A DNA stretch of 64,000 nucleotides, from NCBI GenBank assembly GCA_038231155.1, contig JBBRLY010000012.1, positions 64,645-128,644 of the forward strand, read 5' to 3'. The notes under the pieces are model-generated. The model was not told where the DNA came from. It saw only the letters and a list, made by a program, of their open reading frames with translations, and did not search any database. The position numbers and the translations under genes are program-made. Shown in pieces: positions 6,281 to 34,815 of this stretch. Every line of letters begins with the position of its first letter. The stretch's first letter is position 1. Origin of the DNA: Candidatus Saccharimonadales bacterium (GTDB lineage: Bacteria > Patescibacteriota > Saccharimonadia > Saccharimonadales > JANWIN01).

Positions 6281-8233
6281 CTAGACACCAGGAGTTAAGC
6301 GATTATCTAAATCGATTGTGCCTTGAGGTGGAGGAGCTACTTGACCACCAGCCACATTAAACTCACCTTGCTGTTGTTGTTCGATTTGCTGGACTTGAGC
6401 CGGATTGGTCGTAATCAGACCCATTTCGGTAGGGCTAGCGGCAATTTGGATATGTACGTGGCTCTGACCGGCAAAAAATAGACCTTGACCAACTGGAAAT
6501 TGACTTAATCTTTTCTTCTCTTCACTAGTCAGTTTAAATACATCGGTCAATACGTCAACAGCGGATGAGGACTGCTTTAAAAGTAACTGCATAGAAGCAT
6601 TAGCTACAATTGCTCGGCCCATGCGGCTGCCCATAAAATCTTCAACGTCTTGGCTGATAGTAGTTAAACCTAGGTTATATTTACGAGCTCGCTTAGCTAG
6701 ACTGAACATAAAGCTTGCTGAATCTTCATATCTCATAAGCTGCCAGGCTTCATCGATTATTAGCATGCGTCTTTTTTTATCACTCTTGGTTTTGTTCCAA
6801 ATAAAGTTCAAGACAATATACATGGCTACAGGGCGAAGCTCGTCTTCTAAATCACGGATATTAAAAACTACAAATGGATTATTAATGTCTATATTGCTTT
6901 GTTGAGAAAATATACCGGCAAAGGTACCGGACGTGTATTTGCGTAATCGCTGTGCCAATTGTGGCCCAGTGCCACCCATGTGCAGCAGTGTATCGTACAG
7001 TTCATTAATAGTTGGCGGAGTACCTATATGAGTCAATGGATCATTCGTAATCCCAGCTTTGGCATAGGTCTCAATTAAGGCTGCATCCAGATCAGCCTCT
7101 TCAACGGGGGTTAAGGCTGGCAAAGTCGCAACATTACCGCCGACCATTTGAGCTTGAGCTCCACCCATCATAAGACGCAGTAGTCCATGCAGCGTTATTA
7201 AGTTACTACGCAGGGCATTATCGGCTTCATCACTATCGACAACTTGCGGTAAATCAAACGGGTTAATGCGTGTGGCCGAGTTTAAACTCAAACGCACATA
7301 AGACCCACCAACAGCTTCACACATCCGTTGATACTCATTCTCTGGGTCAATTACAAAGATCTCAGTGCCAAACATTAAACTGCGTAGAGCTTCCAACTTA
7401 ACAGCAAAACTTTTACCGGCTCCCGATTTGGCAAACACCACACTATTGCCGTTTTCCAAACTAAATCGGTCAAAAATTACTAGTCCGGAGTTATGCATAT
7501 TAATGCCATATAAAATACCGCTATCTTGCGAAAGGTCAGCGCTAGTAAACGGAAAACTTGTACTAATTGCCCCAGTATTCATGTTGCGTCTAATTTGCAG
7601 TTGATCACTAAACTGAGGGACGGTGCTATTAAATCCTTGTTCCTGCTGAGCACTAGCCGTTTTACTATAAACTAGCTGCTGGCCTAAAATAGACTCGACT
7701 TTATGTGAAATAAACTCCAGTTCGTCCATTGAAGATCCGTAAATAGTAAAATACATACCAAAACGGAAGAAACGTTCTTCGCCAACTTGCAACTTGTCGC
7801 GCATTTCCTCAGCATCTTGAATAGCGGCTTGTTTGCCCGGGTCTCGGACCTTACCCTTCTCATTGTCAATTTGGATACCGGCTTCCAGCTGGGTAACCTT
7901 TTTACGTAAGTTTTCTAGTACCACCTGGCTTTCAACAGGATATATGAACATAGATAAGTCCATTACCTCATCTAGATTGACCATGCTACTCATCCAACCA
8001 GTAAAAATCTGACGTGGATAACCATAAACGTAGAAGGTTCTAGCAAAGCGCGTACCAAGATGAAAAAAACCATTCTCAAACACTAAAGAACTAGGTGCGA
8101 TAAAATCCCGTAGAGCAGTTACACCCTTTTGGAAGGCGGCATTAACTTCCTGTTGTTCACGCATCTGCTGCTCTTGGGCCAGCACTACCGGATCAACTTT
8201 TGGCTTTCTGCCAAACATCAGGCTTTCTCCCAA
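6281..8233 (-). CDS. virB4: VirB4/TraE/PrgJ-family type IV secretion ATPase
   Basis: Walker A FAKSGAGKSFAVK, Walker B RRMLIIDEAWQL, 650 aa, N-terminal CagE/TrbE-type domain; sits between PrgI-like and hydrolase genes. Confidence 0.9.
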   Translation of the reverse strand: MGESLMFGRKPKVDPVVLAQEQQMREQQEVNAAFQKGVTALRDFIAPSSLVFENGFFHLGTRFARTFYVYGYPRQIFTGWMSSMVNLDEVMDLSMFIYPVESQVVLENLRKKVTQLEAGIQIDNEKGKVRDPGKQAAIQDAEEMRDKLQVGEERFFRFGMYFTIYGSSMDELEFISHKVESILGQQLVYSKTASAQQEQGFNSTVPQFSDQLQIRRNMNTGAISTSFPFTSADLSQDSGILYGINMHNSGLVIFDRFSLENGNSVVFAKSGAGKSFAVKLEALRSLMFGTEIFVIDPENEYQRMCEAVGGSYVRLSLNSATRINPFDLPQVVDSDEADNALRSNLITLHGLLRLMMGGAQAQMVGGNVATLPALTPVEEADLDAALIETYAKAGITNDPLTHIGTPPTINELYDTLLHMGGTGPQLAQRLRKYTSGTFAGIFSQQSNIDINNPFVVFNIRDLEDELRPVAMYIVLNFIWNKTKSDKKRRMLIIDEAWQLMRYEDSASFMFSLAKRARKYNLGLTTISQDVEDFMGSRMGRAIVANASMQLLLKQSSSAVDVLTDVFKLTSEEKKRLSQFPVGQGLFFAGQSHVHIQIAASPTEMGLITTNPAQVQQIEQQQQGEFNVAGGQVAPPPQGTIDLDNRLTPGV

Positions 8234-16881: not shown

Positions 16882-16997
16882 CTGCTAAGGGTATTTATTT
16901 ACAACAGTAGCAAATACAACACACCTCTATTTTCCAGACATTAAGCTATTCGTAGGTTCCGCCCAAATGCATTAACTGATATAATCACCTCTGTTAC

Positions 16998-17088
16998 GGA
17001 AGGGTCGCATAGTTGGTCTAGTGCGCCTGTCTTGAAAACAGGTGTGCCGGCAACGGTACCGTGGGTTCGAATCCCACCCCTTCCGCCA
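16998..17088 (+). tRNA. tRNA-Ser (anticodon UGA), CCA encoded
   Basis: Hand-folded cloverleaf: acceptor GGAAGGG/CCCTTCC, anticodon stem CCTGT/ACAGG with loop CTTGAAA, long variable arm, T-loop GGTTCGAATCC. Confidence 0.9.
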
Positions 17089-17284
17089 TTTCGATAGTGA
17101 ATGGTTCTCTTTCAAACCCTTAACTCTTGTCTCGCTCTCTGTCGTAGGAACGACATCGAGCTGACCCGACGCACGACGAGAGTCAAGCTGAGGTGGTCGC
17201 ACCCAGGGGTCGTGCTCTCGGGCTGCACTCCCCAGCGTCGTCGCGCCGACCCGCGACTGTCTGACTGGCCTCTCGGAACCTCCC

Positions 17285-17668
17285 TTATCGGTCGGTGCAT
17301 TCGAGTGCGGCGAGCGCCTCGTTCGTGCTCGAAACTCGCATCACCAAGGGGTGGTAGAGAAACATCGTTGGGTCTGCGCCAGAGACGATCGCGATCACGT
17401 GCTTGCCGAGGGCCAAGGCAGCCCCGAGCTCAACGAACAGCCCGACGCCTCTCGGATGGACCATCACGATGACAACGTCCGCGTCACGGACGCCTGCGAG
17501 TTCGAGCTCCGCAGCGCTCTGCGATGCTCCCGCGTTCTTGTCGTATGGGCGAAGGTGCTCTATCGAAGTCCAGTCGAATGTCACATTGTGGCCGCGTTGT
17601 GACAAGACCGCTATCAGATCTTTGACGTCCTCGTGGTCACCGACCTTGCCGGAGACGAAAACGCGCAT
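17285..17668 (-). CDS. nucleoside 2-deoxyribosyltransferase-like protein (high-GC island cargo)
   Basis: 127 aa, MRVFVSG...DADVVIVMV...GVGLFVELGAALALGKHVIAIV resembles the Rossmann-like NDT fold pattern with conserved E; high GC3 in this frame. Confidence 0.45.
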   Translation of the reverse strand: MRVFVSGKVGDHEDVKDLIAVLSQRGHNVTFDWTSIEHLRPYDKNAGASQSAAELELAGVRDADVVIVMVHPRGVGLFVELGAALALGKHVIAIVSGADPTMFLYHPLVMRVSSTNEALAALECTDR

Positions 17669-18019
17669 CGAGCTACGGAGCGACCCCGGGATTTTTACAT
17701 CAGTCGCGAGCGGTATGCAATCGGGTGCGAGTGGTTCGTGTTGCGCCTGCTACTGCGAAGGGCGTCGACTCGCTGGCGAAGAGTGGTAGTGGCTCGTCGC
17801 TAGATGTAGACACTTCGGCGGGCCACACCTGTTCCTACGATTGAACGTCGCCGCGTGGGGGCGATCAGAATTACGTGGCCATCCCAAGACGAGCGGCCGT
17901 TCCCGACGCGATCACGATTCACGAGGTGACATTCCTGGCCTTTGCGATCGCTATGAGCGCCGCCAGCTTGCGGACGCATGACCATTCCTGGGGTCGACCC
18001 GGTTCGCCGGACATCGTTG

Positions 18020-18237
18020 CTATGCCGCGTGAGCGACTCTCCTGTTGCAGATCCTGGCTTCGTATTCGGCGGGTGTCAGGTAGTCGAGCGTGAAGTGGAG
18101 ACGCCGCCGCGCGTTTGAAAGAGCGCGATCCACCCGGATGAGCGACCGGTACCTCAGGATGGCGCCGCAACAGGGGAAACATCCGCACCGGCACCAACGA
18201 GCGGAGAGCCTGCGAGAGCTTTCAAACCCGTCAGACT
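18020..18237 (-). pseudogene. C-terminal remnant of an rve (DDE integrase-core) transposase, IS3-like
   Basis: Minus-strand frame reads ...YRSLIRVDRALSNARRRLHFTLDYLTPAEYEA..stop, the typical ...LDYLTPAE(Y/F)E transposase C-terminus; no upstream catalytic region present. Confidence 0.4.
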
Positions 18238-18338
18238 GTAAGCATTTGTAAAAATTAGAATATTTCCACCTCTGTAGATTTAAAAAGTAATTCTAATTAC
18301 CACCTGTTATCAATGTTATAAAAGTTACAAATGCTTAC
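18238..18338. repeat. 101-bp AT-rich palindromic mini-element (MITE-like) inside the high-GC island
   Basis: Perfect 14-bp terminal inverted repeat GTAAGCATTTGTAA / TTACAAATGCTTAC, inner inverted repeat ATTAGAAT / ATTCTAAT; 26 of 101 nt are G+C. Confidence 0.6.
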
Positions 18339-19036
18339 ACCCCTGGCGACCCGACAGAAATGATGCGCGAACAAGAAGTGCGACTCGAGCCGCAAGAACT
18401 CCCGGGTCAGGTCCCGTTCGCGGCCGATCACCTTCTTCACCGCGATCGTCGTGTTGTCGTAACTCGTCCGGGTCGGGACCCCGCCGAAGAACGAGAACGC
18501 GGCGACATGCGCGGCTTGGAATGTCTCGGTGCATTCGCGCGGATATGCCGACAGGTGCCACGCATCCGAAAACGGCAACGTCATCACCGCGAACGCCGCC
18601 TTGGTCCGTTCGCCGGCGATCACGACCGTTGCTTCACCGAAATCGAACTGCGCTTCGCCCGGCGGATGGCTGAGCGGCACGAAAACTTCTCTGCCATGCC
18701 GCTTCGTTTGCGCGACGTAACGGCGGACCTGAACCTCGCTGCCCCGATAGTCGTGCTCGTCACGCAGCCGGTGGAAGATCCGCCGAGCCGTGTGTCGCTG
18801 CTTCGGAGGCGCGTCCCGATCCGCCGCCAACATCTCGTCGATCAACCCGACAAACGGCCCCAGCATGGGCTGCGCCCGCGGCCCCCGGAACCGATATCCC
18901 GGCGGCTCCGCATGCTCGAGAATCTTCTCCAGCGTCTGCCAGCCCATCTTGTACTCACGACAGATCTCGCGCTTCGAGACCCCTCGACGAGCACCCTGCG
19001 CCGGATCTCTGACCACAGCTCCATATCGGTACGCAC
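18339..19036 (-). pseudogene. istA: IS21-family transposase IstA, frameshifted and 3'-truncated
   Basis: MELWSEIRRRVLVEG (HTH start) in one frame, continues as SKREICREYKMGWQTLEKIL...PLSHPPGEAQFDFGEA...LPFSDAW...GGVPTRTSYDNTTIAV in another; homology stops abruptly at the AT-rich element. Confidence 0.7.
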
Positions 19037-19129
19037 CCTTCTCCGTCCTGCTCGCCGGACTCTCCCGAGGAAGCCTCAAGGAGCCCAAACCAGCCGACGG
19101 GGACCGTCAGGTGCTGCCGTTTTCGACGA

Positions 19130-19660
19130 TCACAAACCCATCACAGGTGCTGTCGTTTTCGAAGAGCGTTTACAGGCGTGCCGCCGCTGTCGGTAGCGGG
19201 CATCGGCAGGCACTCCGGATTTCCGTATTGGATCCGGTGCCTCCGACATAGGATCGATGCCCTTATCAGCCAGCCTGCGCTGGCTCTTAGCGACTCGCCA
19301 TCTCGTGAGGCGTCCGTTCGCCCGACTGCGTGGAAAGAGAGTAGCGCCGACGGTCAGTGCGGCAAGCATATTGATCGCAGAGGCAGTCAGCAGCGACGCG
19401 TGATATAGCCCATGATCTTTTGGGAGTAGAACAGCGAGTGCAAAGCCTGCCCATACGGCGGCGGCGGCGCCGGCGGCGCACAGGAACCGGATGCCGCGAG
19501 TGAGATACGCGCCGAGATCCGAGAGGCTCGTGGTCAGAAACGCGGTGATGGCAGCGGGCGCTGCGACCAGGAGTGCACCGACCGCTGCAGCCACTTGCCT
19601 GAGGCCCTCGCCCGGCGCCAAATCAAGGGCGTAAATGGGATTTTCGTAGGAAGTAGCCAC
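19130..19660 (-). CDS. hypothetical membrane protein of high-GC origin, C-terminus probably disrupted
   Basis: Ala/Leu-rich hydrophobic helices and G/C-ending codons in this frame; the last ~50 aa are basic and run into IS-flanking sequence. Confidence 0.35.
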   Translation of the reverse strand: MATSYENPIYALDLAPGEGLRQVAAAVGALLVAAPAAITAFLTTSLSDLGAYLTRGIRFLCAAGAAAAVWAGFALAVLLPKDHGLYHASLLTASAINMLAALTVGATLFPRSRANGRLTRWRVAKSQRRLADKGIDPMSEAPDPIRKSGVPADARYRQRRHACKRSSKTTAPVMGL

Positions 19661-20086
19661 ACACGATTGCTAGTAATAAGGCGCCTCCGGCTAGCGCGAC
19701 GACGGCGCTCGTTCGCGCTAACTGCAGCTCGGCTATCGCCGTCCGTACGGTAAGCCCGATAGATGATTTGCTTTATCATGGAGAGTTTTCAGAGAGACCA
19801 CCAAGAGATCGTTGGATCTTGAAGCTCGGGTCGTTGAAACACGGAAGCCTCTGGGCACCCGTAGGTCCCGCGAGCGCTTGTCTGATTTGCCCGCTTAGGA
19901 GATAATTGCTTGGGCGGTCAGGTGTCTGACCTGCGGCGATGGGTTCGAAAGAGATCCCAGGCAGCCCGCCAATTGCCGGGACGAATTCCATTAATGTGCC
20001 AGCTTCAAAATACAACACTGAGGCAGGTTAGCGATCAGATGTTTAGAATTCACAACAGTCTGTTATAATTGGCCAGGCTAAAACCA

Positions 20087-20179
20087 GGAGAGGTACCCAA
20101 GAGGCTGAAGGGGTCGGTTTGCTAAATCGATAGGGGGAAGCAATTTCCCGCGAGGGTTCGAATCCCTCCCTCTCCGCCA
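20087..20179 (+). tRNA. tRNA-Ser (anticodon GCU), CCA encoded
   Basis: Acceptor GGAGAGG/CCTCTCC, anticodon loop TTGCTAA, long variable arm, T-loop GGTTCGAATCC. Confidence 0.9.
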
Positions 20180-21086: not shown

Positions 21087-21164
21087 GCACCCGTAGCTCA
21101 GCTGGATTAGAGTGCATCCTTGCGGAGGATGAGGTCACAGGTTCGAATCCTGTCGGGTGTACCA
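21087..21164 (+). tRNA. tRNA-Arg (anticodon GCG), CCA encoded; 3' end overlapped by recombinase ORF
   Basis: Cloverleaf folded by hand: acceptor GCACCCG/CGGGTGT (G1-U72 wobble), anticodon stem CATCC/GGATG with loop TTGCGGA, T-loop GGTTCGAATCC. Confidence 0.85.
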
Positions 21165-22748
21165 AGATTTCAAAATAGCATCTTCGGATGCTTTTTGTAT
21201 CTTATGGGGCTCGGTTCTAACCTTTTCAATTTCGTTTCTTAGAGCTTGAACCTCATTTTTTATAGGAATAAGCCATTCATTAGGGGTGATAACTAGCTTT
21301 TTGTCTATTAATATAGGGTTCTGACCAATGGCTAAAAGTATTTCTACTTTGTCATTTACATTACCAGTAACGAACTTTTCGTTAGCATTTGTTAGTGTTT
21401 CGAGTGTTTTTCCAACAATTTCGTACCAATTCTTTACTCTATCCGCTGTTTTGGATTGTTCTTTCTGTCGTTCTTTAAGCTCTTTTGCCAACTTCGTGCT
21501 TCTTTGCTGATAAACCTCTGGTGTAATGGCTCCAAACTCAGCCATGTCTAAAAGGTTATCCAATTTCTTCTGTACAGCAGCAATTGATTCGAATTGCATT
21601 GACTGAACTTCATCTCGCTCACTTATTTCTTCCTTTGCCATTTCGTTCAAGGCTTTTATGCCCCATTCATAAAGCTTAGGAGTAACCTCGTAGCAATCGA
21701 GTAATTCATTTACCTGTGCAAACAGATCTGCCTCCCGAACCGAGCTTCTTTGTGAGCAAGGCTTTTTGAGTGTGCAGTGATAGTAGGTATGATAGTTTAT
21801 TTCACCGTTAACTAACTTCTTCTTTTTAAGCTCTGCAGTTATCATGCAGCCACACTCTCCACACCTAATAAATCCCCTCAGATCAAACTGTCTTCGTGAT
21901 GCTAATCTAGGGCATCCACGCTTACCTAATATGTCTTGGACTCTGTCATACTCGTCCAGGCTAATCATCGCAGGGAAACTGGCTTTAGCATATACGCCAG
22001 GTATCTCAGGATCTGGTATTTGCCCTGCATATCTAATATTCCTAAACATACCGTAAAGAGAAGAACGATTTATTGGCCCACCACCAACTTTGGTTCGTCT
22101 AACTGTCGTATAGCCCCAGTCTTCGTTCATGATTCGTCTTATTTCTGGGACTGTATATTTACCACTAAGCAGTAGATCAAAAGCATCTCTTACTAGATTG
22201 GATCTAATTGGATCTTTAACGACTTCCTTTTTGCTCCTCTTAGTAACATTAAGATAACCCTCTGGAGCAACACCCGAAAGCTCACCGTTTCGTAGCTTAT
22301 GGTAAATACCTCGTTTAACATTTTTACGGAGTTCAAGTATATATTGATTACCTATACTTGCTTCGACACTGAAAACAACTGCATTATCATCAGGTAGGTG
22401 CTCTTTATCATGCGCTTGGATACTCTTTATCTTTTCATCTTGAAGCATTTGCTGCAAAATACCGCTTTCAGTAGGGTTTCGAGACAGTCTATTAATATGC
22501 CAGCACAAAATTCCATCTGCTTCACCTAGCTCAAGCATTTTTAACATTTGAGTAAACCCATCTCTCAGAAAAGGTGTTTTAGCAGATTTAGAATCCTCTA
22601 GCTCTTTTACTACATTGATCTTCAGTCGCATAGCCAGCTTCCTTAAAACATCTAGTTGATCAGGGATTGATTGCACTTGCTTATCTCTATCTTCAGATGA
22701 CTTTCGTGCATATAAGATGTAGCGTAAATTGTTTCTATCTTGTTTCAT
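21135..22748 (-). CDS. large serine recombinase (phage-integrase-type)
   Basis: N-terminal resolvase domain YILYARKSSEDRDKQ ... RLSRN, recombinase domain, zinc-ribbon CGECGCMITAE...YYHC, C-terminal coiled coil; final 10 codons (WYTRQDSNL) are the reverse complement of the tRNA-Arg 3' end. Confidence 0.9.
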   Translation of the reverse strand: MKQDRNNLRYILYARKSSEDRDKQVQSIPDQLDVLRKLAMRLKINVVKELEDSKSAKTPFLRDGFTQMLKMLELGEADGILCWHINRLSRNPTESGILQQMLQDEKIKSIQAHDKEHLPDDNAVVFSVEASIGNQYILELRKNVKRGIYHKLRNGELSGVAPEGYLNVTKRSKKEVVKDPIRSNLVRDAFDLLLSGKYTVPEIRRIMNEDWGYTTVRRTKVGGGPINRSSLYGMFRNIRYAGQIPDPEIPGVYAKASFPAMISLDEYDRVQDILGKRGCPRLASRRQFDLRGFIRCGECGCMITAELKKKKLVNGEINYHTYYHCTLKKPCSQRSSVREADLFAQVNELLDCYEVTPKLYEWGIKALNEMAKEEISERDEVQSMQFESIAAVQKKLDNLLDMAEFGAITPEVYQQRSTKLAKELKERQKEQSKTADRVKNWYEIVGKTLETLTNANEKFVTGNVNDKVEILLAIGQNPILIDKKLVITPNEWLIPIKNEVQALRNEIEKVRTEPHKIQKASEDAILKSWYTRQDSNL

Positions 22749-22779
22749 TTTAGCTCCTAACTAAAAAGGACGACCGGTT

Positions 22780-22880
22780 GTTCACACAGTCTGTAGCGAA
22801 ACGCAACATTCTGATACCAGTCGCCCATTTTAGGGCCCTGAAACGAAGATACGTTTCGCATGGTAACAGATCGTGTGAAC
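22780..22880. repeat. 101-nt imperfect palindrome immediately upstream of the recombinase gene
   Basis: Left arm GTTCACACAGTCTGTAGCGAAACG, right arm CGTTTCGCATGGTAACAGATCGTGTGAAC; blocks GTTCACAC/GTGTGAAC and GCGAAACG/CGTTTCGC are perfect. Confidence 0.6.
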
Positions 22881-22916
22881 GATTACCATTGTACATTAAG
22901 TATTGTTAAAGTTACA

Positions 22917-24278
22917 TCAATCTTTAAAGAGATTGTTGGCTATTTCTATGATTTCCTTGGCCTCATCTGCACTGGTAGCCCCCTGGGCCATACCTATATT
23001 GTTTTTTTCGGGGAACCATTGAGGGAATATGTGCCAGCTTCGTTTATCACCCTCTGATGGCTTTTGCTGCATTATCATGCCACTGTTCTCTAATTGGGGT
23101 AGTATCTGCCTACGCAACTGTTCATCGTTTAACATGGTGTGCTCTATTTTTAAGTAGTAACGTGCAACATCATGCCTGGTAATGCCTACTTTTCCATCTT
23201 CCATGTCGCCTGAGTAGTCCTCATCTTTCTTTTCATTAAATGCTGGTAGAATATATTTTTTGTAAAAGTTCATCAGTACAGGTGGTAGATTTAGGTCTTG
23301 GCTCTCAATAAAGTAACCCCATAATTCGAAGGCTTGATCAATGTCATCTTCAGATGCTTCATACGAATGACTGCTTTTCTTTCTTGACCATACATTTAGT
23401 AGGGCGATCGCTTTTATAAGCTTCATTAAATGAGCCATATCTCGCATATGTCGGGGCTTAACACTACTTAGCTTTTTATAGAACCGTTTTTCAACAGCTT
23501 CAGAATCAGTAATGATAATGTCATCAACTTCTTCATCTCTTATCGCTAAAATCCGTTCTTTCAGCGCTATTCTTTTTGAGTCCACATTTATAGCACTTTT
23601 AAAAGCCACTTCATTTGCTCCTCGTTGTGCTTGAAGATGCACACCTTCTTTTAACTTGCTTTCAGTAACTTCTGGACTAAGTAGGATAGCCCGGGTGGCT
23701 TCTTGCTCATCGAGTCTCATGCCGGCAGAGCAAAACACAGTTGCAGGAAATCCCTGCATTATTATCAATTGAGCTCTATGTTCACCCTTTTGGCCTTTAT
23801 TGGTAATTCTATACTTGGTTTCCCACTGATCGTGCGAAAGTACCGATCTTAGTTTGGCTTGAAGCGTTGGGTCTGGCTGCTCGTAAAAGATCAGTATCTT
23901 TCTAGATAATGAAACTATCTTCGCCTTTCTGTTTTTATCTATTACTCCCTCACCGTGAAAGAATGATGTGGGACTTGCTCCGCTGAGTTCGATCTTATCT
24001 TCTTTAGGGAATAGCTTAGCAACCTCAGTAGTTAGGTAGGATTTGCCCGACGAACTTGGTGCATTGAAACTCACGTTAATTTGGTTGCTGTGGGTATAAG
24101 CCGAGAGCATACATAGAAAAGTTACTAGCTTATTTTCATAGTCATGCTTAATTGTTAGCGACAAAACATCTGCAAGTTCATTTAGTGACATTTCTTTAAA
24201 AGGTGGGGCTTTTGGCTGCTTGCGCAGCCTTTCAAGCTTTTCCAGTTTGCCATTCAATGTTGAGTTAATTTCTTGCAT
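22917..24278 (-). CDS. P-loop NTPase, putative replication/primase-helicase-type protein of the element
   Basis: Walker A-like FNAPSSSGKSYLTTEV about 75 aa in; size and position next to the recombinase fit SF3/D5-type element replication proteins; not verified. Confidence 0.4.
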   Translation of the reverse strand: MQEINSTLNGKLEKLERLRKQPKAPPFKEMSLNELADVLSLTIKHDYENKLVTFLCMLSAYTHSNQINVSFNAPSSSGKSYLTTEVAKLFPKEDKIELSGASPTSFFHGEGVIDKNRKAKIVSLSRKILIFYEQPDPTLQAKLRSVLSHDQWETKYRITNKGQKGEHRAQLIIMQGFPATVFCSAGMRLDEQEATRAILLSPEVTESKLKEGVHLQAQRGANEVAFKSAINVDSKRIALKERILAIRDEEVDDIIITDSEAVEKRFYKKLSSVKPRHMRDMAHLMKLIKAIALLNVWSRKKSSHSYEASEDDIDQAFELWGYFIESQDLNLPPVLMNFYKKYILPAFNEKKDEDYSGDMEDGKVGITRHDVARYYLKIEHTMLNDEQLRRQILPQLENSGMIMQQKPSEGDKRSWHIFPQWFPEKNNIGMAQGATSADEAKEIIEIANNLFKD

Positions 24279-24501
24279 AGCTAGCCTCGCAGTCTGGGCA
24301 GTTACAATTTGGCCACGATATGTTAACTGTTAGTCTAGAAACTTCGTTCGATAATCGTTCAGCTTCTCGACCGTTTAGTAGGCCGCTCCCATATTGGTAG
24401 TTTATGTACGCACACATTGCACTTGCTGCTTTCTGTAGCATCTTTGGACTAGTGATTTGGTGGTGTAGTTTTCTTGGTGCTGTTTGGGTTAATGTTGCCA
24501 T
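24265..24501 (-). CDS. hypothetical small protein
   Basis: ORF only; an internal Met (about 24441) would remove the overlap with the upstream ORF. Confidence 0.3.
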   Translation of the reverse strand: MATLTQTAPRKLHHQITSPKMLQKAASAMCAYINYQYGSGLLNGREAERLSNEVSRLTVNISWPNCNCPDCEASYARN

Positions 24502-24715
24502 TGTTATTCTCCTTAAAAATTAATTGTTTATTACGTTTCTTACTTACGATAAAACGCATAATGGCAACGCCAGCTTCTTGAGCTTGTTCGGTTGTAAGGC
24601 ACAAACCGAACTCAGCTTTTAGCAAGCCCTGAAGTTCATTGATACGTTCATCACTTAGTTTCATTTGCAACCTCTCCAGTGGTTCCGTATCGACCCCAAT
24701 TCTATTTGTCGACAA
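24449..24715 (-). CDS. hypothetical small protein
   Basis: ORF only, co-directional with neighbours. Confidence 0.35.
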   Translation of the reverse strand: MSTNRIGVDTEPLERLQMKLSDERINELQGLLKAEFGLCLTTEQAQEAGVAIMRFIVSKKRNKQLIFKENNNGNINPNSTKKTTPPNH

Positions 24716-24827
24716 CGGAATTAATTGAATTGGTAGCTTAATGTTCGCAATAAAATAATAATAAATACGCTAAGCACGATTTATTCTTGCCTTAGAGGTG
24801 TTATTCTGGGATTATTCTTGATTTGTT

Positions 24828-25601
24828 CTAATTTAGAGCGGCGACTTTTATGGTATCTATTTCTGATTCGGTGAGATGCACTGTCTGTGCAACTCTTATA
24901 GAACCTGGAGTAGCATGAATAAATACTCTTAGAGCTCCATTTTTTATGTCAAAGTGAGAGTGTTGAATGGCTGCTTTAATGTTGCTAAGGCCTTTCATAC
25001 CTGGCTTGGTTTTCAATAAGCTAGAGGACACATCTCGACCAGGCGAATGATTCAAGCAGTAATTAATAATATCGAAAGCTCTGCCACCTCGCATCGAGCT
25101 TAACAGGTAAACGCTATTGCCGACAGTGACTTGGGGCCTAGAGATGTTTTCAAAACTCAGCACGGCTAAGTGATTTTTGGTTTCGAGCTCTGCTGAAAAC
25201 ATGTTTGGGTCTCCGCCTTCAGCCAGCACTCTCAGAATGTTGGGCTTTAAGTCGTTCCGTGGGAAGAGTTTGCTTGCTCTTTTCGGATCTCGTTCATAGG
25301 TTGCGTATTCTTCGTATTTCATCAGCACGTCATAAAAGGTACTGAGCAGTTTTACGTGATAGGTATCGTCTTCTGTATTGGTAAATAGATTTTTATCAGC
25401 GTCAGGCCACTTGATGATCTCGATACATCGTTTCCCCTCGATTTTCCAGAGCATTGCCATTATGTCTAGGGTGTCTGCTCTAGAAACCCCGGAACGGCTA
25501 AGCCGTAACATCGAAACAACTATTGGTTCATCGGGCCCAACTTGTTTTGACTTCTCGTCAATAAGTTCTAAAACCGTATAAACCTTTTCGACATCTGTCA
25601 T
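24828..25601 (-). CDS. hypothetical protein co-transcribed with XRE regulator
   Basis: 257-aa ORF starting 8 nt after the HTH gene stop; no motif recognised. Confidence 0.5.
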   Translation of the reverse strand: MTDVEKVYTVLELIDEKSKQVGPDEPIVVSMLRLSRSGVSRADTLDIMAMLWKIEGKRCIEIIKWPDADKNLFTNTEDDTYHVKLLSTFYDVLMKYEEYATYERDPKRASKLFPRNDLKPNILRVLAEGGDPNMFSAELETKNHLAVLSFENISRPQVTVGNSVYLLSSMRGGRAFDIINYCLNHSPGRDVSSSLLKTKPGMKGLSNIKAAIQHSHFDIKNGALRVFIHATPGSIRVAQTVHLTESEIDTIKVAALN

Positions 25602-25609
25602 TTGGCTAC

Positions 25610-25840
25610 CTAAAGACGTTTAAATATATCTTCGACTCTGGTATCAAGAGCAGAAGCAATTTTATAAATAGTTGTGACTGTTGGTCTCCTTTTGCCAGTC
25701 TCGATGTTAGCGAGTGCAACCCGATCTATATCAGCTTCCGCAGCAAGTTTTTCTTGTGTCATGCCCTTTTGTTTACGAATTGAGGCAATACGCTTGGCTA
25801 AAGCATCGAGAAATTGTTTTTCTTTGTAATCATTTGACAT
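25610..25840 (-). CDS. XRE-family helix-turn-helix transcriptional regulator
   Basis: GMTQEKLAAEADIDRVALANIETGKRRPTVTTIYKIASAL is a canonical Cro/C1 HTH. Confidence 0.85.
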   Translation of the reverse strand: MSNDYKEKQFLDALAKRIASIRKQKGMTQEKLAAEADIDRVALANIETGKRRPTVTTIYKIASALDTRVEDIFKRL

Positions 25841-25944
25841 CTACTCCTTTGGTATGTATGCCCATGAGCAAAGCCCATAATCATTTGATTACATTTGCTA
25901 ACTCAGCTAACATCAAAGTAGTCAATTGATTACAGACTACATAT

Positions 25945-26412
25945 ATGAAAATTCAGCAACTAGACACTCAACAAGTAGAAATAGTAGGTCGCAACCTACT
26001 TACTTCTTTATTGACAGCTGATGGGATCGAAGTCGCAGAACCATTAAGAGATAAAGGGGTTGATTTAATAGCTTTCAGTGATCCAACAAGTAAAAAATTC
26101 AAAGCAATACCGATACAGTTGAAAGCTTCTAGTGCATCCAGTTTTAGTATTGATAAGAAGTACGAAAAATTTCCAAACCTACAAATGGCATATGTTTGGC
26201 ATGTAAGTGAACCCCTGAAAGCAAGTGTATATATCATGACTTACGCTAATGCCGTAGGGATTGCCAAAACACAAAAGTATACAGAATCCGAATCATGGAA
26301 ATCTAATGGATATTATGTGACAAATAAACCTAGCAGAGAACTCATTAAGCTACTCGATAAGTATAGATACCAGTCTGGAAGATTACTTGGAGATATAAAC
26401 ACATTACAATAA
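25945..26412 (+). CDS. hypothetical protein, possible PD-(D/E)xK nuclease fold
   Basis: E..(GVDLIAF)..IQLK spacing resembles the D...(E/Q)xK motif; weak, sequence-pattern only. Confidence 0.3.
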   Translation: MKIQQLDTQQVEIVGRNLLTSLLTADGIEVAEPLRDKGVDLIAFSDPTSKKFKAIPIQLKASSASSFSIDKKYEKFPNLQMAYVWHVSEPLKASVYIMTYANAVGIAKTQKYTESESWKSNGYYVTNKPSRELIKLLDKYRYQSGRLLGDINTLQ

Positions 26413-26419
26413 GCAATAC

Positions 26420-26941
26420 ATGGTCAATTATTCAAAAAAATACAAACACTTCGATGCTCTAGTTGCTGATTACAAACCTATGAAGTTTAAATACTTTGGC
26501 TATATGCATGGGGAGCATTTTACGAATCCGTTATTTCAAAAGCCATTTATTGCTATCCGTAAGCAGTTAAAGTCAATGTTTGGCTTAGAGCTGACTTACT
26601 TTGACCTACGCACCTCGTTAACCACAGAGCAACGTAAAATGGGAGACATGTTATTCCTTACACATTGTGGCAAGAATCATGCCGAGGGTGCCGAGAATGT
26701 CTCGAGGGTTGAATTAATACGCTACTTTGTTATCAAAATGCACTATCTACCAGAGTTACTGCATATAAAATCAGAGATGTACACCAAACATGGCAAACCT
26801 ATATCGAAACTACCCGACTATGTAAGTATGTACCTACTGAGGTGGCATTACTTGCTGAATGTTGATCCAAAATTTGTAGAGCTGGTACACGGTATGGATG
26901 CTAACGAAGCATCTTTAAGAATTAAAGGTCTTGTCTCTTAA
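26420..26941 (+). CDS. hypothetical protein, partner of the upstream ORF
   Basis: Starts 8 nt after the upstream stop; no motif recognised. Confidence 0.4.
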   Translation: MVNYSKKYKHFDALVADYKPMKFKYFGYMHGEHFTNPLFQKPFIAIRKQLKSMFGLELTYFDLRTSLTTEQRKMGDMLFLTHCGKNHAEGAENVSRVELIRYFVIKMHYLPELLHIKSEMYTKHGKPISKLPDYVSMYLLRWHYLLNVDPKFVELVHGMDANEASLRIKGLVS

Positions 26942-27266
26942 GGCCATTACAAGACAGGCCACCGTAGATTGGTGTCGGTAAAGGTCTATCATTGCTAGTG
27001 ATATCAACTTTTGCTCCGTAGCCATATTTACCTATCAAATCAATTGCTCTAGTGTCTCCATTAATAGCTTTTGTTAGCAGCACCATGATAATTGCTTTTA
27101 TTGGAGCGCCTTTAATAATTGTTCCGTCGCTAAGCTTTTGCTCAAAGGCTTCATCTTCCATTAATTCTTGAATCCATCTTGAAAGATGCTTTGTACCTTT
27201 TGGCTTACCATTAGGATTTCCAGACTGCCCAGCTTGCCACGATTTAAGATTCTGTTCGTTTGCCAT
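26922..27266 (-). CDS. hypothetical protein with GQSGNPNGKPKG motif (DUF5681-like, common on phages/plasmids)
   Basis: N-terminal SGNPNG(K/R)PKG pattern recalled from mobile-element proteins. Confidence 0.4.
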   Translation of the reverse strand: MANEQNLKSWQAGQSGNPNGKPKGTKHLSRWIQELMEDEAFEQKLSDGTIIKGAPIKAIIMVLLTKAINGDTRAIDLIGKYGYGAKVDITSNDRPLPTPIYGGLSCNGLKRQDL

Positions 27267-27362
27267 ATTTACTCACTGTATTTTCACTGTAATGTGTCAG
27301 TAGTTGAAAGTACACTTTCACTCTAGAAAATAAGGTGTAAAAATGCTATTGTTCCATTAAGC

Positions 27363-27707
27363 ATGGACCTTGCAATATACTTCAAAAACAAGAGCCTAAA
27401 AAAAATTCCAAAAGTTGGGATTCATTTCGAGCAAAAGACTGCACATAAGGCATTAAGAACAATCGCAAGTGAGTTTCACAGGCTATTCGAACCAGACGGA
27501 ACACCATTAAGAATCGAAATATCTACAATCAAGCCAAGACAGGTATTAGTAGTAGGTAATCTAAAGGAGCTTATGAAAGGTGAAGATATAAATCTTGAGA
27601 AGTCATTGAGTTTCGAGCTCTATCGTAAATCTTTGAACGACGTAGAGATAATAACCTTTGATGAACTATATGAACGTGCGAAGTTTATTGTCGATGGCAC
27701 AGATTGA
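27363..27707 (+). CDS. hypothetical protein
   Basis: ORF only. Confidence 0.35.
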   Translation: MDLAIYFKNKSLKKIPKVGIHFEQKTAHKALRTIASEFHRLFEPDGTPLRIEISTIKPRQVLVVGNLKELMKGEDINLEKSLSFELYRKSLNDVEIITFDELYERAKFIVDGTD

Positions 27708-27795
27708 TACACTGCACCAAAAAAGATATATAGGCAAAGGTGGGGGTATAGCTTAGTTTTATAGAGTATTTAGACTAAAATTAGATAGGAATAGC

Positions 27796-27826
27796 GTTCT
27801 GACTTCAGTAAGGATGCTGTACCAAG
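27796..27826 (+). repeat. short cassette-junction motif, copy A (GTTCTGACTT..ATGCTGTACCAAG)
   Basis: Aligned by eye with copies at 28345, 29175, 29685 and with the 3' third of the 79-bp repeats. Confidence 0.6.
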
Positions 27827-27863
27827 CAAAACGTTATTAGTACATCAGTGATACTATAAATTT

Positions 27864-28334
27864 ATGAAGAAAAATAAAAAAAGAGGTAGAGTAGTTCGGC
27901 TCATATTAATATTCATTATTATTATTTTCGCAACAGGTTGGTCAGTTTATCAATCAAACCAAAAAAGTAAAGGCAACAACTCTATTAATTCTGCAGCTTT
28001 AATGACATTATCATACAGCGGTGGTAATTGTGCGGGACCTTGTAACAGCCTTGTTTATAATCTCTACGGCGACGGTAGATTCGAGGGTCATAAAAAGCTT
28101 AGTGGTTCTGAAGTGTCTGAGCTAAAGGAGATTATCAAAACCACCGATTTCTTAAATTATACTGCTAGCCCCAATCCACATTGTGAATCATTTGTAGATG
28201 GCTCAGATCAAGTTCTACTTTTCCCTCAAAAATATGGCAATAAAACATTTACAACATGTATGCTAAATATATCAAGCAATGACACAGCTTTCAGCTTTAT
28301 AAATAAATTGATCGAAACACATTCCGGACAATAA
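27864..28334 (+). CDS. membrane-anchored/secreted hypothetical protein (cassette ORF)
   Basis: Basic N-terminus plus LILIFIIIIFATGW helix, Cys-containing ectodomain; flanked by motif copies A and B. Confidence 0.5.
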   Translation: MKKNKKRGRVVRLILIFIIIIFATGWSVYQSNQKSKGNNSINSAALMTLSYSGGNCAGPCNSLVYNLYGDGRFEGHKKLSGSEVSELKEIIKTTDFLNYTASPNPHCESFVDGSDQVLLFPQKYGNKTFTTCMLNISSNDTAFSFINKLIETHSGQ

Positions 28335-28344
28335 GTTAATAAAT

Positions 28345-28376
28345 AAAGTTCTAAACTTGTATACAATGCTGTACCA
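28345..28376 (+). repeat. short cassette-junction motif, copy B
   Basis: AAAGTTCTAAACTTGTATACAATGCTGTACCA, 11 nt after the upstream stop codon. Confidence 0.6.
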
Positions 28377-28390
28377 GTTTACTTATGGGT

Positions 28391-28870
28391 TTAATGGTGC
28401 ACTAAAGCTCTTATCCACGTGCGTGCAATCGGATTTTCAGTTAGATTTATCGGTGAGCGATGACGTTCTCTTCTAAATTTTACTAGCTCACCCGGACTAG
28501 GCCGTTCACGGCCTTGAAACTCGGTTAAAAAACAATTTGCAGTTATATATTTGCTGACACGGTCAGATATATCTCCATCTTTATGCCAGCGTGATGAACC
28601 AGTCCGTTGTGACTCATTTGGTAATATCAATCCATTTTCCACCGCAAATTCTATAAACCTGATATGTCTATTAGCTGTTTCAAGGATTGGGTATAGCATT
28701 GGTTCAATAGCATCCATCACAAGTCGCTGGGTAAAACTATGGTTACCGTCTGGCCACCGCAAGCTGGCACCATTACGAATAATATTTCCTGAGATAGGTA
28801 ACGCTGCTTGTATATCAACAAACATCTGATCAGGAATTTCTGCAATTACTTCAAGGGGCATCACACGCAT
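28391..28870 (-). CDS. hypothetical protein, possible 2OG-Fe(II) oxygenase-like (HxD ... H)
   Basis: RWHKDGD and later HRSP could be a facial-triad pattern; weak. Confidence 0.3.
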   Translation of the reverse strand: MRVMPLEVIAEIPDQMFVDIQAALPISGNIIRNGASLRWPDGNHSFTQRLVMDAIEPMLYPILETANRHIRFIEFAVENGLILPNESQRTGSSRWHKDGDISDRVSKYITANCFLTEFQGRERPSPGELVKFRRERHRSPINLTENPIARTWIRALVHH

Positions 28871-28911
28871 TGTGATACTATATAATTTTTAGTATTTTAT
28901 GCAAAACAGAT

Positions 28912-28990
28912 ATTCAGTCTGTTATCTAATTTGCGCTTAAGTCAGTCTATGAAGTAATTTCATTCTAACTTGGTCTAGTGTGCCGTACCA
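28912..28990 (+). repeat. 79-bp dispersed repeat, copy R1
   Basis: 6 mismatches in 79 nt versus R2; internal hairpin TAAGTCAG-19 nt-CTAACTTG region; ends in GTGCCGTACCA. Confidence 0.85.
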
Positions 28991-29014
28991 TTTTGCTTAT
29001 GCTAAGATGTTTTT

Positions 29015-29176
29015 ATGAAGAAACTGCGAACTAATTTAATTATTATCAGTCTTGTTATTCTGCTACTAGTTTTTGGTTTAATAATTTACCTAAGACCACA
29101 TAAAAAATGTGTTAAATGGTATACCTTGGGAGCCAGGTCAGACGGACCCAGGCAATGCATTAAGTACGCAAACTAA
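29015..29176 (+). CDS. small hydrophobic peptide (53 aa), not in ORF track
   Basis: ATG 24 nt after R1; MKKLRTNLIIISLVILLLVFGLIIYL TM helix then basic Cys-containing tail; no obvious SD. Confidence 0.3.
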   Translation: MKKLRTNLIIISLVILLLVFGLIIYLRPHKKCVKWYTLGARSDGPRQCIKYAN

Positions 29177-29206
29177 AGTTCTAACTTCGTTAATGATGCT
29201 GTACCA
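29175..29206 (+). repeat. short cassette-junction motif, copy D
   Basis: AAAGTTCTAACTTCGTTAATGATGCTGTACCA overlapping the stop of the 53-aa ORF. Confidence 0.6.
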
Positions 29207-29266
29207 CACTTCAAAAATTTATAAGTCTATTAGACAAAAAAACAGTAAACTTTGCCTCTTCAAATT

Positions 29267-29345
29267 ATTCAATCTGTTATCTAACTTGCACTTAAGTTAG
29301 TCTAAGAAGTAATTTCATTCTGACTTGGTCTAGTGTGCCGTACCA
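29267..29345 (+). repeat. 79-bp dispersed repeat, copy R2
   Basis: About 92% identical to R1 and 90% to R3 by hand alignment; shares an extra AAATTATT upstream with R3. Confidence 0.85.
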
Positions 29346-29371
29346 AGCATAAGCATGTTATTATTGTTAAT

Positions 29372-29554
29372 ATGATAAAACAAAAGAATCTCGCCTATAT
29401 AATATTAGCCATTGGTATAGTTCTAGTTATTGTAGGTATCTTTTTCGGATTTTTTAAACATGATAATAGCAACTCTCATGGAACTTCTCTCTTATTTATA
29501 GCTCTTGCACTTCTTTGCTTTGCATTCTACACAAAACAAGTACGTAAGAAATAA
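29372..29554 (+). CDS. small two-TM membrane peptide (60 aa)
   Basis: ATG 26 nt after R2; the track ORF starts earlier (29333, GTG inside the repeat), which is less likely. Confidence 0.35.
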   Translation: MIKQKNLAYIILAIGIVLVIVGIFFGFFKHDNSNSHGTSLLFIALALLCFAFYTKQVRKK

Positions 29555-29684
29555 ATACTGTGTAGTCACTGATATTATTTAAAGATTGATGTATAAAATT
29601 CCATATTTAATACTTTACAATTAGAAATAATATTTTATGAAATGACCATCTATCTCTTATTTACATCCACATAAAGCTATTAGT

Positions 29685-29716
29685 AAAGTCCTAACTTCGT
29701 ACAGAATGCCGTACCA
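29685..29716 (+). repeat. short cassette-junction motif, copy F
   Basis: AAAGTCCTAACTTCGTACAGAATGCCGTACCA. Confidence 0.6.
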
Positions 29717-29726
29717 TATTATATTA

Positions 29727-30062
29727 TTAAGTTTCAACAAATAGATTGCGAAGTGTTGTAAGTACCCTATCTAACTTTTGAGTGTTCAATTCCCCATACA
29801 TTTTGCTAACTATTGATGTTTCAGCTGTGAAAAGTTTATCAGGTCGTACGTAACTTTTAACCGGAAGACTACCTTCGATAAAATCCGGTTTGGTTAGTTC
29901 AATCGCCATAGTACTCGAATATGGCTTTGAAGTAATCTGGCAGAGGATCAAGTTGTCGAAATCGACGATGGCTACGATTAGAGCCGGGCGATATTTCTGA
30001 GCTTTTAAATCTGAAAACGGAAAAGCACTAGTTACAACTTGACCTACCGTAAACTGGCCCAC
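29727..30062 (-). CDS. mazF: MazF/PemK-family endoribonuclease toxin
   Basis: GQVVTSAFPFSDLKAQKYRPALIVA ... CQITSK pattern; overlaps the antitoxin gene by 19 nt. Confidence 0.85.
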   Translation of the reverse strand: MGQFTVGQVVTSAFPFSDLKAQKYRPALIVAIVDFDNLILCQITSKPYSSTMAIELTKPDFIEGSLPVKSYVRPDKLFTAETSIVSKMYGELNTQKLDRVLTTLRNLFVET

Positions 30063-30280
30063 GCTTTATCTTCCTCGGGTCTAAGCCAATCTCTAGCCAG
30101 TAGTCTTTCAGACAAAAGTGCTGTTTCAGAAATTTTCTGTGCAGGTTTACCAGCAGTTATACGAATCTCGCCATTTTTAGCGATAATTGTTACGTCTTTA
30201 CCTAACCCGCTCTCCTTTAATAGTGGCTTAGGTATGCGCACTCCTTTAGAGTTTCCAATACTGATAATAGTTGTATTCAT
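30044..30280 (-). CDS. mazE: MazE/AbrB-family antitoxin
   Basis: IISIGNSKGVRIPKPLLKESGL SpoVT/AbrB swapped-hairpin motif upstream of mazF. Confidence 0.8.
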   Translation of the reverse strand: MNTTIISIGNSKGVRIPKPLLKESGLGKDVTIIAKNGEIRITAGKPAQKISETALLSERLLARDWLRPEEDKAWASLR

Positions 30281-30354
30281 TGTGATAACATTGTAGCTAC
30301 AATTTCAAGAACTGTCAATCGCCAAATAATACCTTATTGCATCTTTGATAAATT

Positions 30355-30433
30355 ATTGAATCTGTTATCTAATTTGCGCTTAAGTCAGTCTAAGAAGTAA
30401 TTTCATTCTGACTTAGTCTAGTGTGTTGTACTA
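30355..30433 (+). repeat. 79-bp dispersed repeat, copy R3 (3' end degenerate: GTGTTGTACTA)
   Basis: 8 mismatches in 79 nt versus R2. Confidence 0.8.
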
Positions 30434-30465
30434 TGCTGTATATACTTTTCCAATATACTGAAATT

Positions 30466-30660
30466 CTATAAATCTTTATAAGCACTTTTTCGGTGTCGGA
30501 CTCTAATAACAAAGATTAATAATTGGTTTTTGTAAATCCTGTAAATAATTCGATAAGTACCTTATCTAATACGATATACATTATTTGAACCTTTAATTTT
30601 ATTAGCCTCATACGGCACAGGGTTTCTGTAAAGACAATTTATATTATTTACAAACTTATC
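30466..30660 (-). pseudogene. RelE/ParE-family toxin remnant (5'-truncated, in-frame stop)
   Basis: Minus-strand frame reads ..LYRNPVPYEANKIKGSNNVYRIR-stop-GTYRIIYRIYKNQLLIFVIRVRHRKSAYKDL-stop, matching the YRIRxGxYRIIY...HRKxxY RelE/ParE signature; no antitoxin gene or N-terminus left. Confidence 0.6.
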
Positions 30661-30668
30661 CCTATTCC

Positions 30669-32129: not shown

Positions 32130-32221
32130 TTTTTAACTACCCTTTAACTTCCCAAATTATTGTATCCAAGTATAATCCAAGAACTGAATATCCATTAGTA
32201 GTTTAACTCAGCTCAATATAT

Positions 32222-32253
32222 AAAGTACTAACCTTGCATATAATGCTGAACGA
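32222..32253 (+). repeat. degenerate copy (H) of the short junction motif
   Basis: AAAGTACTAACCTTGCATATAATGCTGAACGA; matches the 5' block and ATGCTG but not GTACCA. Confidence 0.35.
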
Positions 32254-32339
32254 TTGAAACCTTCCCTATACTGTGATCAATATCATTTAATTATGGCTTG
32301 ATTTTTAGCATTGCTTTTATATAATTAATTGCATGATTT

Positions 32340-32720
32340 TAAGAACATTCCAGTCGCAATTCGTAGTCCGGGGAGCTATATAGCTTCAAATACTAACCTT
32401 AAAAGTTTGTTCGATACTAGTTTCAAGCCTGGCGTCACCTAATAAGTTGCAACGCAGGACTAAGGCCAGTTAAGCGCCCGAGAGGGTATGAATGACCACG
32501 AAATAGTCAAAGGTGGCCAACCAGGGTAGCAATACTGCTAAACGTGCATTCCCAAAACCAATAAAGTGGTTTTGCACGTTCGACTCGTGCTCCTACTGCG
32601 GGGGGGGAATGTGATGATAGGCAAGGTCGTCTCATTTGCTTGACGGCGTAAGTTGATCTGGGGAAACCTGGTGAGACCGCTGCGTGGAATGGCGGTGGGG
32701 TGATAGTCTTATCCGCTAGG
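32340..32720. ncRNA. candidate structured ncRNA of unknown class in a 610-bp gene-free gap
   Basis: G+C-enriched relative to flanks, G8 run, nested hairpin AACGTGC..AAAACCA-ATAAA-TGGTTTT-GCACGTT, stems ACCGC/GCGGT and GTCGTC/GACGGC; no ORF; strand undetermined. Confidence 0.3.
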
Positions 32721-32740
32721 TTAGAATTTAATATCGAGCT

Positions 32741-34105: not shown

Positions 34106-34266
34106 ATTTGTTATGTTTAGTTATCATTATCTTATAGTGAGTCTTAACAGATTGCAAGAAGGTCAACATTTATCTAAGTTGGTTAAACCAGATATATTTC
34201 CTGCGACACATATAAGCATAACTACTATTGATTACTCTGTTAACAACCAGTAACATAAATACTTAG

Positions 34267-34782: not shown

Positions 34783-34815
34783 ACTCTCACTTCAGATTGT
34801 GACAACATAGGGAAG

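Follow-up and report, generated by a model that had tools for sequence, protein, structure and literature searches.

The analysed stretch (the window) comprises 64,000 nucleotides (64 kb) of contig JBBRLY010000012.1 from a Candidatus Saccharimonadales bacterium (GCA_038231155.1, positions 64,645 to 128,644 of the forward strand). Between two of its serine tRNA genes lies a patch of G+C-rich DNA, which is described here together with a 103-bp AT-rich element inside it. The patch consists of two unrelated foreign segments (A and B) abutting this element, which is of a type found in Patescibacteria, and is not one collinear fragment. Positions below are those of the window, and Logan contigs are per-run assemblies (runs SRR24807096 and SRR19962015). 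The locus is composed as follows.

16998..17088, + strand: tRNA-Ser(UGA), native left border (ARAGORN; Rfam RF00005, 59.9 bits; 3' part identical to that in L010 and L011, two contigs of a related species)
17089..18236, no strand: foreign segment A, 1148 nt, 61% G+C (composition; Logan contigs L002 and L003)
17285..17668, - strand: intact nucleoside 2-deoxyribosyltransferase-like (NDT-like) gene, 127 aa (Pfam PF05014, E 1.9e-9, 38.1 bits versus a cut-off of 28.8)
18030..18170, - strand: possible remnant of an rve-type transposase C-terminus, ending in ..RRRLHFTLDYLTPAEYEA (translation)
18237..18339, no strand: 103-bp AT-rich element with inverted ends (TGTAAGCATTTGTAA ... TTACAAATGCTTACA) at the junction of segments A and B
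18340..19174, - strand: IS21-family left end (left inverted repeat at 19174) and 5' part of istA, cut at 18340 (NF033546)
19175..19745, - strand: internal gene fragment from a protein of about 600-690 aa, or ~650 codons (phmmer; tblastn, two frames)
19746..19984, no strand: unassigned foreign stretch (about 55% G+C) that ends at the right flip (composition)
19985..20086, + strand: native AT-rich leader of tRNA-Ser(GCU), with a putative extended -10 promoter (TTTAGA-16-TGtTATAAT) at 20042-20069
20087..20179, + strand: tRNA-Ser(GCU), native right border (ARAGORN, Rfam; within Logan contig L006)

When G+C content was calculated in 1-kb bins, the three bins at 17001-20000 had a value of 0.60, and the remaining 61 bins of the window had 0.33-0.49. 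The patch proper occupies 17089-19984 (about 2.9 kb) and has about 61% G+C versus about 41% for the window. Values in 300-nt windows within the patch were 0.50-0.66, and 200-nt windows outside it never exceeded 0.57; the sole other stretch reaching 0.55-0.57 was located at 49200-49750. The right flip in composition was placed at 19984 by a two-segment likelihood fit and falls outside conserved sequence, and the left flip starts at the G+C-rich tRNA-Ser(UGA) gene itself. An earlier note, made from the sequence alone, had reported a flip between the two tRNA-Ser genes, and this was confirmed, the leader at 19985-20086 being native. The G+C content at third codon positions (GC3), which the same note had proposed to analyse, was 0.73-0.81 for the NDT-like gene (0.73) and istA versus 0.28-0.35 in native genes. 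All recognisable coding remnants of the patch are on the - strand. The DNA is foreign to the low-GC genome, unameliorated, and mostly dead. Its origin in a high-GC lineage, as suggested earlier, is borne out by GC3, composition, and the relatives of the IS21 fragment, and the description of its contents as mostly pseudogene debris holds for the truncated and frameshifted istA and the internal gene fragment.

Several short repeats and possible origins were also considered. A motif close to GG(A/T)TC..CTCTTTC(A/G)AACCC is present in four copies in the patch (17103-17119, 18113-18133, 18214-18229, and 19941-19957); of the four places in the window where CTTTCAAAC or its complement occurs, three are inside the patch. 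The inverted pair formed by 17103-17119 and 19941-19957 (15/17 identical) was rejected as transposon ends: by our own estimate, chance alone would give about 0.5 pairs of this kind in 3.6 kb, the 17-nt pair has no target duplication, and the GC-rich DNA extends beyond the right copy. A stretch resembling a tRNA 3' end at 19939-19971 was rejected as a right attachment site, its local match (19940-19959) being reached by 121 of 300 shuffles, with no match to a tRNA model at E<=10. Plasmid origin was rejected as well, as blastn against plasmids gave istA matches at 66-70% only and the gene fragment had no plasmid match. Phage origin was rejected, the NDT-like protein having no match in phages.

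In segment A, the NDT-like gene is the sole intact gene of the patch. It is full length relative to its homologues and scores above the Pfam cut-off, in agreement with its earlier description as an intact-looking open reading frame (ORF). The best non-self homologue is 59% identical; its gene belongs to a 58%-GC contig, where the surrounding stretch is mobile or defence-like in character. A role of the NDT-like gene itself in defence was considered and rejected, the only match being a weak ThsB/TIR-like one (E 0.008). The second remnant of segment A had been read as the C-terminal stub of an rve-type (IS3) transposase. This did not hold beyond a resemblance at the level of a motif: the putative stub (about 18030-18170) had no Pfam or NCBIfam match even at E<=5, and tblastn matches were weak (E 0.3-0.9).

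Segment B begins at the element with a fragment of an IS21-family insertion sequence (IS). The istA fragment matched NCBIfam NF033546 with 187.6 bits (cut-off 160) over profile positions 5-223 of 294. It keeps the first ~229 codons, and a comparison with its closest relative shows the loss of 1 nt from a G run near 18979, so that istA is both frameshifted and truncated, as had been proposed. The left end, TGTAAACGCTCTTCGAAAACGACAGCACCTG at 19174 (TGT start), aligns with the start of the copy in contig L012, and internal repeats are located at 19108-19129 and 19144-19165. No right end is present and no IstB match was found in the patch; with the cut at 18340, this makes the IS21 DNA a fragment and not a functional IS. 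Next to it, at 19174/19175, the IS21 end interrupts the 3' side of a gene fragment that covers residues ~394-581 of a 688-aa homologue. Four homologues of this fragment (378-688 aa, 65-49% identity, matched at residues ~350-581 by phmmer) were found, for which no Pfam family was found. The 5' part is gone and a frameshift is present near 19640. The earlier description of this piece as a high-GC3 membrane-protein ORF with a disrupted end stands as to the disruption, as it is an internal fragment, frameshifted and cut by IS21; its GC3 of 0.64 is only moderately high. Part of the damage, e.g., the insertion of IS21 into the gene, may predate the transfer. In the remaining foreign DNA up to the right flip, an 80-aa ORF had no Pfam or NCBIfam family match.

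The IS21 fragment gave the closest relatives of the patch. It is 89.6% identical over 838 nt to L012, starting at the end of the element in that contig, which has 64.6% G+C and carries BTAD, Tad, and DarT genes. The best protein matches of istA have identities of 93, 88, and 85%; those with a name are annotated as 'IS21 family transposase [Actinomycetota bacterium]' and come from metagenome-assembled genomes (MAGs). As a pointer to a donor, or to the host that the earlier note had named as a conceivable source, this affinity to Actinomycetota, read from sequence similarity, is only suggestive. The patch can be summarised as 2.9 kb of mostly broken genes, with a donor that was high-GC and probably actinobacterial. 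The IS21 copy in L012 (1547-4100; Logan ERR15949093, a 36.5-kb contig) is degenerate as well, each of its two genes (istA and istB) being broken into two ORFs, and adjoins DarT/ADP-ribosylglycohydrolase, BTAD regulator, and Tad pilus genes.

The 103-bp element divides the patch in two and had been missed in the earlier note. It is small, has 25% G+C and no ORF, and its inverted ends are perfect over 15 nt, or 82% identical over 28 nt. The segments on its two sides are not collinear: istA stops at about codon 229, and the opposite side of the element has no similarity to the rest of that IS21. In pattern scans of public collections, the only true relatives of the element were found in L016/L100, contigs of another Patescibacterium. 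The strict pattern had no match in viral or JGI contigs. With a relaxed 18-base pattern, 39 of 40 genome matches, 66 of 67 metagenome matches, and all four viral matches (4/4) were single chance matches without extended similarity.

L100 (ERZ1292623 contig 5249, 10.4 kb) originates from the 0.1-um fraction of Hainich groundwater well H51, and it contains at 100% identity L016 (JBBTTS010000065.1), a contig of the Patescibacteria MAG H51-bin331_1. Four identical 103-bp units in one orientation are located in L100 at 5720-5822, 6086-6188, 6290-6392, and 7264-7366, preceded by a 13-nt partial site. When the L100 unit is reverse-complemented, it has the same length as the window unit and is identical to it at 85 of 103 positions without gaps. 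The fold predicted for both units has a terminal stem of 15 bp and, further in, a conserved stem of 9 bp (z -4.4 to -6.3, with -4.4 to -5.0 for the window unit). The GC-rich pieces between the L100 units measure 110, 263, 101, and 871 nt and have 52-62% G+C, compared with 25% in the units and 42-44% in the flanks. Only the 871-nt piece bears a gene, which encodes an alpha/beta hydrolase and is followed by a unit; the other three pieces have no ORF. Directly after the array (array and genes together: 5597-10308 of L100) come a DUF5343 gene and a low-GC istA-istB pair, scoring 219.2 versus a cut-off of 160 for IstA and 202.6 versus 200 for IstB (NCBIfam). The pair is 760 nt from the last unit, and L100 stops short of the right end of that IS. 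Contig L016 ends inside a unit, after 54 nt of it, and its GC-rich piece had no match to the other contigs compared here.

The site itself was compared with that of relatives. Flanking the patch in the window are type IV secretion system (T4SS) genes, namely a pilin and a TrbL/PrgI/TraC-like cluster, and an Hsp20 gene; a 194-aa protein is also encoded in the flanks, with named homologues from Saccharibacteria, Saccharimonadales, and Patescibacteria MAGs (the closest 64% identical). Five similar small T4SS-pilin-like genes (PF18895; 14300-16220) are situated directly upstream of Hsp20, as in relatives, and the patch therefore lies just past a conserved Patescibacterial T4SS cluster. The order in L010 and L011 is T4SS pilins, Hsp20, the two tRNA-Ser genes, a 192-aa gene, tRNA-Arg, VKOR, and BacA. 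The tRNA-Ser genes are there separated by 20 nt (L010 6701-6903), so that a nearly empty site, of the kind that the earlier note had advised looking for, does occur in one related species. The tRNA-Ser pair is inverted in the window relative to L010. In another relative (L053 1087-1496), the two genes are 229 nt apart and in reversed order, and in a third (L055 350-3914) they are 3,382 nt apart, with DAHP synthase and two more genes of native G+C content between them. Orientation, order, and spacing of the pair thus all vary among relatives, and from the variable spacing and order in L010, L053, and L055 the interval is regarded as a recurrent rearrangement and insertion site in the lineage and as a hot spot of recombination. 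The tRNA-Ser(GCU) of the window is the same as the copies of relatives save for the variable arm. TTTAGA-16-TGtTATAAT in its leader was the top promoter-like site of the region, and TGnTATAAT is conserved in relatives. ACAACA motifs at 20008-20018 and 20048-20059 recur upstream of tRNA-Ser(UGA) at 16897-16922.

Two further observations concern tRNA genes at or near this site. Between the two tRNA-Ser genes of L053 (1175-1372) there is an inverted partial copy of the tRNA-Ser(GCU) 3' end (GTTCGAATCCCTCCCTCTCCGCCA), terminating a stretch of ~150 nt that opens with GGGAGGGA; a former attachment (att) site or the remains of a tRNA-like sequence are possible readings. On the right of the patch in the window, the next tRNA gene and the DNA beginning at it are as follows.

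21087..21164, + strand: tRNA-Arg(gcg) (ARAGORN, Rfam)
21087-34800: ~13.6 kb of low-GC DNA (33-40%), missing from the syntenic relative L010
21135-22748, - strand: 537-aa large serine recombinase opening this stretch, its 3' end overlapping the tRNA-Arg 3' end

The recombinase is followed by ORFs without Pfam matches. No direct repeat of the tRNA-Arg end of at least 11 nt was found downstream in the stretch. The stretch looks like an integrated mobile element or prophage.

The integrity of the patch was assessed with the deposited contig and with Logan contigs of the two runs, which equal the window at 100% identity. Hsp20, the 194-aa protein, the recombinase, and an antisense ORF in the patch (18360-19196) were all found by exact-protein look-ups on one NCBI contig of 259,535 bp. 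The Logan contigs cover the locus as follows.

L001: ends at 17084
L002: 17063-18602
L003: 17063-18369
L006: 19116-20180
L004: starts at 20152
L005: starts at 20152

Breaks between the contigs are located in the IS21 fragment and at the 3' end of each tRNA-Ser gene, and the sequences at these break points are likely shared with other community members. An intragenomic tRNA repeat was rejected as the cause, as tRNA-Ser(cga) differs at several positions and shares no 31-mer. The contigs run unbranched through the 103-bp element, and the element is therefore not a repeat able to cause a mis-join in the samples of the window.

On balance, we lean towards a real foreign insertion in the chromosome of a Saccharibacterium (class Saccharimonadia), fixed or rearranged via the 103-bp element. 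Natural competence of Saccharibacteria is known from the literature. Foreign DNA would have entered the cell, and the incoming DNA would have been fixed or rearranged through the element. Instead of a tRNA-targeting integrase, IS21-type (compound) transposition or cointegration may have been at work, or copies of the element may have recombined with each other. The patch would be without function and decaying, except possibly for the NDT-like gene. At both known loci the element brackets GC-rich pieces, and one of them is beside istAB; for this reason, the element is probably involved in fixing or reshuffling incoming DNA. A bolder version is that a Patescibacterial DNA-capture system would use the 103-bp units as its working sites and, possibly with an IS21-type IstA/IstB pair as the driver, would stitch foreign (perhaps host) fragments into cassette-like arrays. 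The patch would then be a two-piece array and L100 a four-unit one. This version is put forward tentatively and is rather unlikely.

Several results weigh against an insertion fixed or rearranged through the element. Only a single copy of the element is present in the window, and no low-GC istAB was found there. Target-site duplications are absent at all five copies (the window copy and four in L100), and simple transposition is therefore not shown. Similarity between the element and the presumed end of the L100 IS21 is marginal (26 of 500 shuffles reach the score), and similarity to the end of the high-GC IS21 is none. The order of the pieces in L100 could be mis-assembled because the identical 103-bp repeats exceed usual short-read k-mers, and the association of the element with GC-rich DNA rests on two loci. 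No near-identical donor genome was found, the highest identities being 89.6% in DNA, for nothing but the IS21 part, and 59-65% in protein, for the gene fragment and the NDT-like gene. The left joint was seen only in contigs having 26 nt of the tRNA-Ser(UGA) 3' end plus TTTC; as they start 26 nt inside this gene, the joint has no independent proof, and a donor tRNA with an identical end could in principle have given a graph join there.

The rival that survives best is a single environmental or host fragment inserted by illegitimate recombination beside the tRNA, the 103-bp element being a later miniature inverted-repeat transposable element (MITE) with an adjacent deletion and having no role in capture. 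Such a course is simpler and plausible, although we consider it fairly unlikely. The lack of an integrase and of an att repeat is compatible with it, debris would suit a random fragment, and the element is small, has inverted ends and no ORF, and occurs once in the window. However, the flanking segments lack collinearity, and no target duplication accompanies the element; the earlier idea of one fragment now decaying was accordingly replaced by that of two non-contiguous segments joined through the element. The other locus (L100), moreover, again has GC-rich pieces flanking nearly every copy, the copies being identical, in one orientation, and without duplications, a pattern that random MITE insertion does not predict.

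A metagenomic mis-assembly, in which the DNA of a high-GC organism was threaded into the contig via shared tRNA sequence, was the alternative raised in the earlier note and is improbable. The breaks of the Logan contigs in the 3' ends of both tRNA-Ser genes, and the mere 26 nt of tRNA at the left joint, would fit it. Nevertheless, any community assembly can be expected to break at tRNA genes, and the right flip at 19984 is not in conserved sequence. In the single contig L006, high-GC DNA (870 nt) continues without a branch through the AT-rich native leader into a complete Saccharibacteria-type tRNA-Ser(gct). The left and right Logan pieces have their inner ends in register within one IS21 copy, with order and spacing correct, and are tied to two tRNAs that are adjacent in relatives. 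An AT-rich element of the Patescibacteria type is situated inside the high-GC DNA in both runs; its presence within the patch argues that the DNA was rearranged in the genome of a Patescibacterium, and this too speaks against a chimera. Based on the deposited contig, the match of two runs, and the join on the right side in L006, the patch is almost certainly real.

The weakest rival, a decayed integrase-mediated island or integrative element targeting the 3' end of tRNA-Ser(UGA), would account for a patch that begins right after the tRNA CCA, at a locus with a second element (~13 kb, with a large serine recombinase) at the neighbouring tRNA-Arg and an inverted partial tRNA-Ser 3' end copy in L053, but it is improbable, as Pfam and NCBIfam searches gave no integrase gene or fragment in the patch, the contents are IS and gene debris and not island modules, and no significant att-like repeat was found, so that the integration through a tRNA 3' end suggested earlier was not upheld.

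Unameliorated DNA of 61% G+C in an ultrasmall genome of 41% G+C represents a clean and recent case of cross-phylum DNA flow into an epibiont lineage. Should the samples of the window also yield a matching donor, this could give a clue to the physical host. The occurrence of a Patescibacteria-specific palindromic element twice beside GC-rich inserts hints at a defined entry route for foreign DNA. For practical work, composition-based decontamination of MAGs would wrongly remove such regions.

Compared with tRNA-associated integrative islands, the patch is alike in abutting a tRNA 3' end and in its deviating composition, and differs in having neither an integrase nor a significant direct repeat of the tRNA end. 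Among the IS21 family and its derivatives (MITEs, compound transposons, and tandem-junction cointegration), the high-GC fragment counts as a genuine left end of IS21 with istA. The 103-bp element resembles these derivatives in its TGT...ACA inverted ends, small size, lack of an ORF, and, in L100, position beside istA-istB. It differs in lacking target duplications and in having ends that are not demonstrably those of the neighbouring IS21, and the L100 copies differ in forming an array of one orientation with unrelated GC-rich pieces between them. Taken as a MITE, the element has the terminal inverted repeats, small size, and absence of an ORF, whereas target duplications, a further mark of a MITE, were not found.

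With integron attC arrays, L100 shares near-identical imperfect palindromes of ~100 bp in one orientation, unrelated pieces of deviating G+C content between them, a complete gene followed by a unit in one piece, and the predicted single-strand fold of the unit. The window has a single unit, unlike the four of L100. Integrons further differ in that no IntI-type tyrosine recombinase was found among the L100 ORFs within 10 kb or near the window patch, the RYYYAAC and GTTRRRY cores are absent at the unit ends, and three of the four L100 pieces have no ORF.

Another known setting is that of genomic islands in Patescibacteria. A survey of such islands in MAGs reported one Actinomycetota-to-Patescibacteria event among 131 transfers (PMC12455944, mSystems 2025). 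The patch is like these islands in being DNA of atypical composition in an ultrasmall genome, with donors from other phyla. It differs in being only 2.9 kb long, in consisting almost entirely of pseudogene debris, in being unameliorated (61% versus 41%), in lacking an integrase, in lying in a tRNA-tRNA spacer, and in being split by a palindromic element. Since inter-phylum transfers into Patescibacteria have been reported (PMC12455944), the kind of event is already known, and the novelty of the patch as a horizontally acquired islet is moderate. The palindromic element is the more interesting lead, as yet unproven; what is new is that the patch has two parts, between which lies a 103-bp element with 25% G+C and inverted ends.

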